DNA of 64,000 nt from Octopus vulgaris (taxonomy: Eukaryota). The stretch is taken from positions 22,568,001-22,632,000 of the forward strand of contig OX597823.1 of the NCBI GenBank assembly GCA_951406725.2. Reading direction: 5' to 3'. Numbering within the stretch: position 1 is the stretch's first letter; each line of letters opens with the position of its first letter. Below the pieces are notes generated by a model. The model ran no database searches and had not been told where the DNA came from. It saw nothing but the letters and a program-made list of their open reading frames with translations. Made by a program: the position numbers and the translations under genes. Below are positions 24,571-61,932 of the stretch, one piece after another.

Positions 24571-24611
<41 letters not shown>

Positions 24612-24619
24612 GCCAGCTT

Positions 24620-24835
24620 AATTTAATTCCTCCTTAGTCGAAAGACACCTGTTGTTATGTCCTGTCATTTGTATTTGTGTAACATTCTCCGTTTTTTTCC
24701 GTCCTTGTTTTCGTATGCATTCGCTGCTTTCTTCCAAGGAATCTAATGTTCTTAGCTTAGTTTTTCCTTGAGGCTGGCCAGATTGGAGCAATCTCAAGTA
24801 TAACCACCCGAAATTGCAAAGATAATCTGGAACTC
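24620..24835 (+). repeat. Diverged, 3'-truncated relative of the structured repeat at 60372-60634
   Basis: CCAAG.AATCTAATG...AGCTTAGTTTTT..TTG.GGCTGGCC...GGAGCAA...CCGAAATT shared. Confidence 0.75.
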
Positions 24836-29377: not shown

Positions 29378-30139
29378 TTTTACTCTTTTATTCTTTTACT
29401 TGTTTCAGTCATTTAAATGCGGCCATGCTGGAGCACCACCTTAAAGGATTTTAGTCGAATAAATCGACTCCAGGACTTATTCTTTTCGAGCCTAGTACTT
29501 ATTCTATCGGTTTGTTTTGCCGAACAACTAAGGTAAGGGGATGTAAACACACCAACATTGGTTGTCAAGTGATAGTGGTGATGGGGGGGACAAACACATA
29601 AATATACTCACACACACAAACACACGCACACATTATATATACGACGGGCTCCTTTCAGTTTCCGTCTACCAAGTCCATTCGCAAGGCTTTGGTCGGCCCA
29701 AGGCTATAGTAGAAGATACGCAGCGGGACTGAACCCGGAACCATATGGTTGGGAAGCATGCTTCTTACCATACAACCACGCCTGCGCCTATTCTTACCAC
29801 ACAGCCACAATGTAAAAAATTAAAGGAATTGTTCGTAGAGATTAGTAACAATGCTCTTTACTCTCTTTTACTCTTTTACTTGTTTCAGTCATTTGACTGT
29901 GGCCATGCTGGAGCACCGCCTTTAGTCGAGCAAATCGACTCCAGGACTTATTCTTTGTAAGCCGAGTACTTATTCTATCGGTCTCTTTTGACGAACCGCT
30001 AAGTTACGGGGACGTAAACACACCATCATCGATTGTCAAGCGATGTTGGGGGGGGGGCAAGCACAGACACACAAACATACACACACACATACATATGACG
30101 GTCTTCTTTCAGTGTCCGTCTACCAAATCCACTCACAAG
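29378..30139 (-). mobile_element. Two family B SINEs (29378-29788 and truncated 29853-30139)
   Basis: Reverse complement of 4911-5348. Confidence 0.85.
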
Positions 30140-30780
30140 AGTGGGAAGAGGGTCGAAAGTGTGACTCACATTGTTAGTACTCGTGAAAGTCTTACACAGA
30201 TAGAATACAAGTGCAGATACGACAAGGTTGCCCGAAACCTTCACTGGCTACTATGCCGGAAGTATGGATACAAGGTAACGGATGCTTGGTACCAACATAC
30301 ACCGCAAAAAGTAATGTACTTTAAGGGAAAGGCAAAAATCCTCTGGGACTTAGACTTTCTGGTAGACAATGCGTTAGGGCACCGAAAGCTGGATATAGTA
30401 ACCTTTAGGAGGGACAAATAAGAGTGGCTAATAACCGACGTTGCAGTCAGAGGATCAACATATTACCATGAAAAAAAGGATTAATGAATATGGATAGCTG
30501 AGGATTAAGATCGCTAAGAGTAGGTTATTCCTATTGTCATTGGTGCATTGGGTTCAATATCACCCAACCTGACAAAAAAAAACAAAAAACATCTGGAAAC
30601 TTTAGAATTACCCTACAATCTAGGTGTATTGCAAAAACAGCATTACTTGGAACTGCACGCATTTTGCGTAAAGTATTGTCTGTCTGAGGTCCTTGTTGTG
30701 ACTTGACAGGCAGTACAAACCCTCGGTAGACACAATATCTTCAATCAACATCACGATATTGGATACTGTATGACGTCTTA

Positions 30781-60371: not shown

Positions 60372-60373
<2 letters not shown>

Positions 60374-61327
60374 TTCGTTTTCGTCTCTTGTATTCACATC
60401 CGTCTTGTGCGTTCACATTCCTGTCTTCGACCAAGAAATCTAATGCTTACAGCTTAGTTTTTTTTCTTGGGGCTGGCCGAGTTGGAGCAAATATCAGAAT
60501 TGAACAGCCGAAATTTGCTATGATGATTCGGTGTCTGACTGAAGATTGAAGGCTTCGAATGATTTGTCTGTGTTCCGTGTTCGTCCCTTCCTGTATTTCA
60601 CGTTCATTATATATAAAAACATTCATTCTTATATTATTGCGGCGTTACGTGCACCCCCCCGTTTGTTTGTCCAATTTTAAACCCTGCACGACTTCTATAC
60701 ACACTGTCTTTTACTACCCGCCATTGCTTCTTCACCAAACTTTTTGGCGCCCTCCGATTCTTCCCCTCTCTTCCTCCCATCCTCCTTAATCCCTTCTTTC
60801 TCCTCTCTTGGTCACTGATTCTGTCCCCTGCCTTCCACCCTCTTTGATTCCCTCTCTCTCTGTCTCTCTTTCTCTCTCTCCTGCGACCTGCTGCTTCTTC
60901 AACCATTCTGTTGGCCTTCGTATCTCGACCAACATGTGTCCCCGCTACCGAAACGGTAATTATTTCTACGCCAGCTGCTATGTTGTTGTTGTTTTGTCTC
61001 ATTTGGTCTAAAGTCGTATGACAACCACCGTTATATATGTTTTGTTTTTTCATTACTGTTTTCAATTTCGTTTTCGTCTCTTGTATTCACATCCGTCTTG
61101 TGCGTTCACATTCCTGTCTTCGACCAAGAAATCTAATGCTTACAGCTTAGTTTTTTTTCTTGGGGCTGGCCGAGTTGGAGCAAATATCAGAATTGAACAG
61201 CCGAAATTTGCTATGATGATTCGGTGTCTGACTGAAGATTGAAGGCTTCGAATGATTTGTCTGTGTTCCGTGTTCGTCCCTTCCTGTATTTCACGTTCAT
61301 TATATATAAAAACATTCATTCTTATAT
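60372..61327 (+). mobile_element. Non-coding element with 263-bp direct terminal repeats (60372-60634, 61065-61327), pseudo-LTR-like
   Basis: Repeats appear identical (offset 693 bp); (TA)n flanks; no TG..CA ends or PBS seen. Confidence 0.85.
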
Positions 61328-61669: not shown

Positions 61670-61932
61670 AATGGCACTGCCCTCTCCAGGAATCATTGGT
61701 TTTAGGGTTAGGGTTTTAGAGTTAGTGTTGGGGAAAAAAGTTAAAATTGAAGGAGTTGGGGGAAGGGGAAATTTCACAATGCCGATTTCTTTTTGAAAAC
61801 GTTCAGCTGGAAATGGCCATGCCCTCTCCAGGAATCATTGATTTTAGGGTTAGGGTTTTAGAGTGAGTGTTGGGGAAAAAAGTTAAAATTGAAGGAGTTG
61901 GGGGAAGGGGAAATTTCACAATGCCGATTTTT
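61670..61932. repeat. ~120-bp tandem duplication containing TTTAGGGTTAGGG
   Basis: GCCCTCTCCAGGAATCATTG...AATGCCGATTT occurs twice; upstream 61590-61660 resembles 58820-58925. Confidence 0.8.

Follow-up and report, generated by a model that had tools for sequence, protein, structure and literature searches.

The window, by which we mean the whole 64-kb stretch of DNA that was analysed, contains a non-autonomous tandem retroelement insertion bounded by direct repeats (Table 1). Each repeat carries a multi-pseudoknot RNA motif, which a first-pass annotation had proposed as a candidate ribozyme or cis-element. All ten helix strands listed there were found at their positions, and the segments 60431-60560 and 61124-61253 are indeed the same letter for letter; the full perfect repeat is longer and reaches 263 nt. 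No protein-like open reading frame was found in the insertion (60372..61327), and none lies 3' of the motif. The other features of the window are scattered upstream and downstream of the insertion. Among these, the fragment at 29897-30421 is one which we take to resemble the C-terminal endonuclease of an R2/NeSL-type non-LTR element.

Table 1. Features of the window, with the elements of the motif given for its first copy.
Feature	Position	Strand	Description and basis
Non-autonomous tandem retroelement insertion	60372..61327	+	One 693-nt unit + 263 nt; between (TA)n runs
Direct repeat 1, pseudo-LTR-like	60372..60634	+	Identical to 61065-61327 (263 nt perfect, period 693)
P0, 5' strand	60416..60430	+	CAUUC (60416-20) + GUCUUCGA (60423-30), pairs with 60546-60561; MFE fold, covariation
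P1 hairpin	60431..60470	+	8-bp outer stem + inner CUAA-U-GC..GCUUAG stem; second junction arm; last base abuts G10.1
Helix II, 5' strand	60471..60475	+	GGCUG (G10.1 = 60471), displaced upstream of cleavage block; alignment, covariation, descriptor
P2, 5' strand, and GA of predicted kink-turn (60485-86)	60477..60486	+	Covariation; G 51/54, A 52/54
Block S	60487..60498	+	Helix III strand GCAAAU (U16.1 = 60492), H17 = A60493, predicted cut 60493|60494, helix I strand UCAGA; 54-row alignment, descriptor, 5'-end pile-up
Block G	60505..60518	+	Helix II strand CAGCC (C11.1 = 60509), G12-A13-A14 (60510-12), A15.1 (60513), helix III strand; alignment, covariation
Predicted kink-turn 3-nt bulge (60519-21) and GA (60522-23); P2, 3' strand	60519..60531	+	G 53/54, A 52/54
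Block C, first half	60534..60545	+	Helix I strand UCUGA, then C3-U4-G5-A6-A7-G8-A9 (60539-45); alignment, covariation, descriptor
P0, 3' strand	60546..60561	+	Begins directly after A9; covariation, MFE fold
Second ribozyme copy, identical to first	61109..61254	+	Predicted cut 61186|61187
Decayed, 3'-deleted copy of sister subfamily	24610..24835	+	Without CUGANGA; predicted inactive; unmatched by core descriptor
599-aa open frame	47095-48894	-	
Fragment behind a SINE	29897-30421	+	
Minisatellite	11575-11932		35-nt x10
Repeat with TTAGGG words	61670-61930		142-nt x1.8
Dispersed SINE-like repeat family	3611, 13709, 13961, 22631, 51731		5-8 copies

Read in the hammerhead numbering scheme, the motif contains all conserved hammerhead nucleotides and three helices, in a permuted order, so that the first-pass annotation was wrong to set it apart from the hammerhead consensus. 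The helix formerly named P3 corresponds to helix III, apart from its outer A-U pair, which belongs to the bulge of the putative kink-turn described below. Of the two pseudoknots, GGCUG/CAGCC forms helix II and UCAGA/UCUGA forms helix I. The blocks follow one another as S-G-C (60487-98, 60505-18 and 60534-45), i.e., in a non-circular permutation. Because every conserved nucleotide and the three helices are present in this permuted order, the motif represents a known ribozyme in a new topology. Thus, the idea of a candidate ribozyme with several pseudoknots was sound, and that of a new ribozyme class or of a translation element was not.

Conservation was followed in an alignment of 54 rows. Of the 68 sequences that represented the clusters of 123 copies, 17 were left out as truncated, rearranged or false, and 3 old copies were then included. 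In this alignment, whose conservation and shuffle figures are inflated because 17 of the 54 rows come from loci first found with the core letters and because the rows are related, U4, G5, A9, A13, and U16.1 are present in 54/54 rows and the other core positions in almost all of them (C3 51, A6 53, G8 51, G12 53, A14 52, A15.1 53); genomic copies decay neutrally. N7 is unconstrained (A30 G16 U7 C1), H17 is a G in a single row, and the G10.1-C11.1 pair that closes helix II is found in 46/54 rows. The textbook GUC triplet and GAAAC are present in old subfamilies. Using a generic descriptor made of core letters and pairing only, exactly the two copies were retrieved from the 64-kb window, together with 30/30 loci of the window family and 9/30 and 23/30 loci of two further samples. 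The same descriptor found nothing in 995,511 shuffled bases and recognised 0/62 metagenome loci, these being the 62 matches of a metagenome pattern scan, which was rejected since none has the fold. Helix II is contiguous with A9 in 0 of the 75 descriptor-positive loci.

As the first-pass annotation had anticipated for several known ribozymes, an Rfam search gave no match at the gathering score or at any credible E-value, and the covariance models of the HDV-like, twister, pistol, and hatchet families gave none at the gathering score. Hammerhead types I, II, and III (CGS, GSC, and SCG, with a three-way junction and without core pseudoknots) were rejected in view of the S-G-C order and of the negative Rfam search. 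A second, minimal hammerhead placed further downstream (CUGAAGA..GAAU) was also discarded, no partner for helix II or III being seen by inspection, as were likenesses to IGR-IRES, xrRNA, twister, pistol, HDV, and SECIS elements, the topology of which differs.

The fold model places a perfect four-way junction at A9/G10.1, which would split the catalytic strand. Two of its arms are the P1 hairpin and P0, a helix absent from the first-pass annotation. In the MFE fold of the window copy, zero unpaired bases separate A9 from P0, P0 from P1, and P1 from G10.1. The base following A9 is U, A, G or C in 25, 23, 3, and 3 of the 54 rows, respectively; in the window copy, it is unable to pair with C11.1. 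Over the whole model, 87% of the cells are paired, versus 30-47% in slid controls, and 29/53 pairs show double changes; 0/500 shuffles reach any of five measures, a test inflated by row relatedness. Helices I, II, and III are paired in 93%, 92%, and 96% of the cells and show double changes at 3/5, 3/5, and 4/5 pairs, those of helix II amounting within the genome to 8 cells from few old copies. Double changes affect 6/8 pairs of P2, which is separated by 1 nt from the helix II strand and by 2 nt from the helix I strand, and 9/16 pairs of P0, whose middle is 77% paired and poorly aligned between subfamilies. Hence, the compensatory changes claimed earlier are recovered, helices I, II, III, P2, and P0 all covarying in the 54-copy alignment. 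The GAAG/CTTC hairpin is not retained: its covariation score is 0.142 vs 0.143 for shuffled data, and its bases pair with 60416-60430 instead. The + strand was correctly chosen, since one-sided changes keep G-U pairs on this strand, on which the core also reads; a minus-strand fold, which is the better one for a single decayed copy, was rejected on these grounds.

Between helix III and P2, a 3-nt bulge is flanked by tandem G.A/A.G pairs, an arrangement which we take to be the kink-turn consensus. Positions 1 and 3 of the bulge take all four bases, and the tandem G.A pairs are conserved. A kink-turn is therefore predicted to join helix III to P2. It is also seen in the Naiad-type copies discussed below and is missing in subfamily L069/L090. 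The subfamily represented by L069, L081, L087, and L090 has an 850-nt unit with a duplication before P1, lacks the kink-turn GA and shows a compensatory change in helix III, which makes it a natural experiment on dispensable parts. The inner P1 hairpin (60440-60457; CUAA-U-GC..GCUUAG) is conserved in sequence in all window-type subfamilies and absent from the Naiad-type version; it is a candidate protein-binding or docking site and presumably resembles a branch point with a 3' splice site. In three dimensions, P0 and P1 would stack together beside the helix II/III stack, leaving A9 and G10.1 spatial neighbours, and the kink-turn would bend P2 back, such that P2 ties helices I and II. The junction and the kink-turn might thereby act as natural control points.

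The ribozyme fold belongs to a family of non-coding tandem retroelements, each repeat of which carries it once; there are about 10,000 genomic copies. The pattern of the P1 hairpin (CTAATG-N-GCTTAG-N-GGCTGG) has 4,721 exact matches in the 2.8-Gb genome vs 1 for the reversed control, which excludes chance for the motif, and a core pattern has 9,697 matches vs 4 in controls. The suggestion that the motif occurs once per repeat of a Penelope-like or retrozyme-like element is borne out by arrays with one motif per unit. Copies of the window-type family have a common 3' end, fixed about 140 nt 3' of a cut site, and a variable 5' end, and they form arrays of 2-4 units. Array periods are 685-715 nt, and units measure 690-860 nt. 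The window-type family is young, with 55 matches (from 40 scored of 2,024 genome candidates) that are mostly 95-100% identical. In the window, a G at 60429 and 61122 is common to both repeats and occurs in none of 22 other arrays examined; this G restores a pair beside the four-way junction, and its presence in both shows that a single template position was the source of the two repeats.

That only two variants are visible holds for the 64-kb window; in the genome, many subfamilies exist. The diverged relative noticed at 24734 is real, but it is a relic of another subfamily, which has 3,132 genome candidates. Its homology to this sister subfamily spans 24610-24835 and ends before the catalytic strand, CUGANGA being absent. 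The CCACCC of the relic, once read as a divergent helix strand, is a point change of CCAGCC.

The 5' ends of genomic copies bear on self-cleavage: where cleaved RNA serves as the template of reverse transcription, 5'-truncated insertions are expected to end at the cut. They were counted in the first 95 matches on contig C1, out of 3,718 matches of a pattern anchored about 62 nt downstream. In 14-nt windows approaching the predicted cut from downstream, ends were found at frequencies of 3/91 (+29..+42), 8/88 (+15..+28), and 26/80 (+1..+14). On the upstream side, they fall to 4/54 (-14..-1, with none at -1..-3) and 1/50 (-28..-15). The difference across the cut (26/80 vs 4/54) corresponds to a Fisher p=0.0006, and the strongest step in the raw data lies at +1, the best of 85 boundaries tried. 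When 5 rows that on visual inspection looked like internal deletions or a duplication are left out, the counts become 25/77 vs 2/52; in a sample of 99 copies anchored at GAAA and partly overlapping the first, they are 26/96 vs 5/70. Because the predicted cut is where truncated copies start, it is likely that the motif cuts itself. Whereas 41/95 copies start 3' of the cut, 54/95 extend upstream past it, so that cleavage may be slow, gated or followed by circularisation. Taken together, we assign a probability of roughly 0.8 to the reading, drawn from sequence comparison, of a hammerhead fold with blocks in the order S-G-C, whose catalytic strand is split at A9/G10.1 by a four-way junction and which, once per repeat, likely cuts itself after 60493.

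The alternative that survives best, which we nevertheless consider unlikely, is that the fold derives from a hammerhead and is barely or no longer catalytic. It would then be kept as a binding site for reverse transcriptase, and the pile-up of 5' ends would reflect an enzyme that stalls at the pseudoknots, or else a site where transcription starts. The copies that read through the cut site suit such an explanation, as does the hammerhead of the Poseidon element PAc, which can be dispensed with in vitro and does not cut unless protein is present (PMC11167929). Many 5' ends also lie at +10..+14 instead of +1, and TA micro-homology biases their positions; however, AT micro-homology at -3/-2 gathers no ends, and the step falls exactly at the base that the hammerhead predicts. 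Old Naiad-type copies show no clear pile-up, with 8 ends after and 6 before the cut (n=14). Conservation nevertheless tracks what catalysis requires (a free N7, an H17 other than G) in subfamilies with changed helices.

Two further explanations concern the identity of the fold. An ordinary type-SGC hammerhead could be imagined whose helix II is built from GGCU 60551-54, five bases past A9, the upstream GGCUG being a decoy or a switch. We hold this to be very improbable: these bases can pair with AGCC in the window copy and in the largest subfamily, but at this place the sister subfamily reads AAGAAAACUC, and the letters differ again in old subfamilies. Moreover, they covary with the P0 5' strand, and it is the upstream strand that changes jointly with CAGCC in old subfamilies and in Naiads. 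There is equally little to recommend a new ribozyme class or a translation/recoding element with coincidental hammerhead words, which would fit the negative Rfam search and the sequence conservation of the inner P1 hairpin, unaccounted for by the hammerhead model, but not the eleven core nucleotides in exact register with three helices, the absence of descriptor matches in about 1 Mb of shuffled sequence and the lack of an ORF after the motif.

If the split hammerhead is active, read-through transcripts of the arrays would be cut once per unit, giving unit-length 693-nt RNA. A Penelope-like reverse transcriptase would then nick (TA)n and start internally, about 140 nt 3' of a cut. A linear cleaved template would yield short stubs starting at or just after +1; an uncut or circularised template would yield longer copies and arrays of 1-4 units. 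For comparison, the PAc Penelope-like enzyme starts internally on its RNA, and the PAc hammerhead needs protein (PMC11167929). Four contig sets, whose RNA nature is guessed, cover parts of the unit and list no ends or joints. One 687-nt contig, also guessed to come from RNA, wraps round the unit, which tandem read-through explains as well. Among 23 arrays, 5 private substitutions are present in all units (3 arrays) vs 4 true single-unit ones, one array being mixed, and read-through would again explain this distribution; the count set aside 25 'differences' due to misaligned flanks of two truncated units.

The ribozyme likely derives from the 3' end of Naiad-type Penelope-like elements, as suggested by the comparison of motifs. 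Craig et al. 2021 (PMC8557442) reported that Naiads are without canonical hammerheads, marking some as 'HHR_core' or 'HHR_half_core', and this absence served as an argument that Penelope-like elements might simply be parasitised by hammerheads. From File S5 of that paper, the last 330-400 nt of 53/54 Naiad consensi, with targeted excerpts, were judged by eye, a range from which ribozymes further upstream would escape. The split S-G-C form with P0 and P1 was recognised in 8/53 ends, namely three near-identical ones from Acropora, Clytia-3, Morbakka-2, Pomphorhynchus, and two from Octopus. The authors of PMC8557442 annotated these ends at most as 'HHR_core/half_core'. The helix II sequences of these eight are wholly different; Beroe and Euprymna provide two weak further cases. 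A motif of the published Octopus Naiad consensus has 398 genome matches vs 0 in the control, from which the genome is probably that of an octopus. This Octopus-type split ribozyme lies about 1 kb behind broken Naiad reverse transcriptase remnants, on the same strand, the remnants being assigned to Naiad by resemblance to the sequences of PMC8557442. A Pfam search returned nothing on these remnants of the genome, and no intact Naiad ORF was found among 105 matches, the longest open frame having 292 aa. The covariance model of the window-type families fails to detect the Naiad-type ribozymes of the genome, and no Naiad reverse transcriptase fragment lies beside any window-type copy examined.

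A young Neptune family was also considered as the motif carrier and rejected, the motif being found in 1/30 loci. This Neptune-type Penelope-like family (L214, L216, L221; G000 C12, C15, C2) is very young: 148/150 scored copies are stop-free over the query stretch, and open frames of 811 aa are numerous. No CUGANGA-GAAA core follows its stop codon in the loci examined. It is possible that this family supplies the helper enzyme in trans.

The closest known ribozymes are the type-SGC hammerheads (HRIMA-1; Eckert et al. 2023), which cleave in vitro at 0.007-0.19 per min (PMC10085705). They were described from metatranscriptomes and from no genome of a known organism; CUGAnGA runs into helix II in them, as in the other published permutations, and block C is assumed to be indivisible (PMC10085705). 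The motif of the window shares with type SGC the S-G-C order, two core pseudoknots, a short helix I-helix II linker and the full core consensus. Type SGC also has a stem tying the distal sides of helices I and II (PMC10085705), and P2 stands in that place here, an equivalence suggested by topology. In contrast to type SGC, the link between CUGAnGA and helix II is broken, the helix II 5' strand lying upstream of block S. Also unlike type SGC are the modelled P0/P1 four-way junction, the putative kink-turn between helix III and P2, and the chromosomal location in an animal with about 10,000 copies. The motif is therefore outside types I-III and outside type SGC as defined, and is a rearranged form of a known ribozyme.

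As carriers, the elements resemble the non-LTR retrozymes and the Penelope-like pseudo-LTR hammerheads in being non-coding tandem repeats with one hammerhead per unit, an AT-rich target, a fixed internal 3' end and a variable 5' end (bioRxiv 10.64898/2026.07.22.740005; PMC6765202; PMC11167929). According to the same sources, however, those elements carry type I, often minimal, hammerheads, whereas the ribozyme here is a 146-nt split S-G-C form in units of 690-860 nt. Likewise, the (TA)n target, the partial tandems and, in 8/53 of the 3' ends, the split topology are shared with Naiad elements (PMC8557442), but the window family is without an ORF and the covariance model shows no homology to the Naiad-type ribozyme of the genome. 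In the pseudoknot (PK) hammerhead (PDB 8YDC; PMC11300833), helix II is also formed by a pseudoknot; unlike here, the block order is circular, the catalytic strand is intact and there is no A9/G10.1 four-way junction. In the openly accessible literature searched, including passages of PMC13725137, PMC10162972, PMC11300833, PMC3088659, PMC6765202, and bioRxiv 10.64898/2026.07.22.740005, neither a split-core hammerhead nor an animal genome with a permuted one was found. Within the same scope, no hammerhead interrupted at A9/G10.1 had been put to an experimental test.

With less assurance than for the fold itself, we lean towards a wider proposal, namely that this is a seventh hammerhead topology, outside the six-permutation scheme, which presupposes an unbroken catalytic strand. 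It would be an active ribozyme with a catalytic strand broken at A9/G10.1, in which the four-way junction possibly acts as a protein- or folding-gated switch. It would be the standard processing ribozyme of a branch of Naiad elements in at least cnidarians, acanthocephalans, and cephalopods, and its roughly 10,000 retrozyme-like copies would move as RNA circles of about 700-860 nt. If this is true, a natural, high-copy four-way junction inside the catalytic strand extends the structure rules of hammerheads, and descriptor-based surveys all missed a class of animal ribozymes. It would also answer the puzzle of Naiads said to lack canonical hammerheads (PMC8557442). Finally, the genomic 5'-end step offers a possible readout of ribozyme activity for which assemblies suffice.

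It seems that ribozyme types are exchanged among Naiads. All 8 nematode Naiads of File S5 (Pristionchus x2, Nippostrongylus x3, Haemonchus, Heligmosomoides, and Ascaris; PMC8557442) have, close to the 3' end, what on visual inspection is an intact type-CSG hammerhead. Eckert et al. (PMC10085705) had two CSG sequences, from metagenomes. In the bivalve and hemichordate Naiad 3' ends of the same file, a different conserved structured motif is seen, which is not hammerhead-like (PMC8557442).
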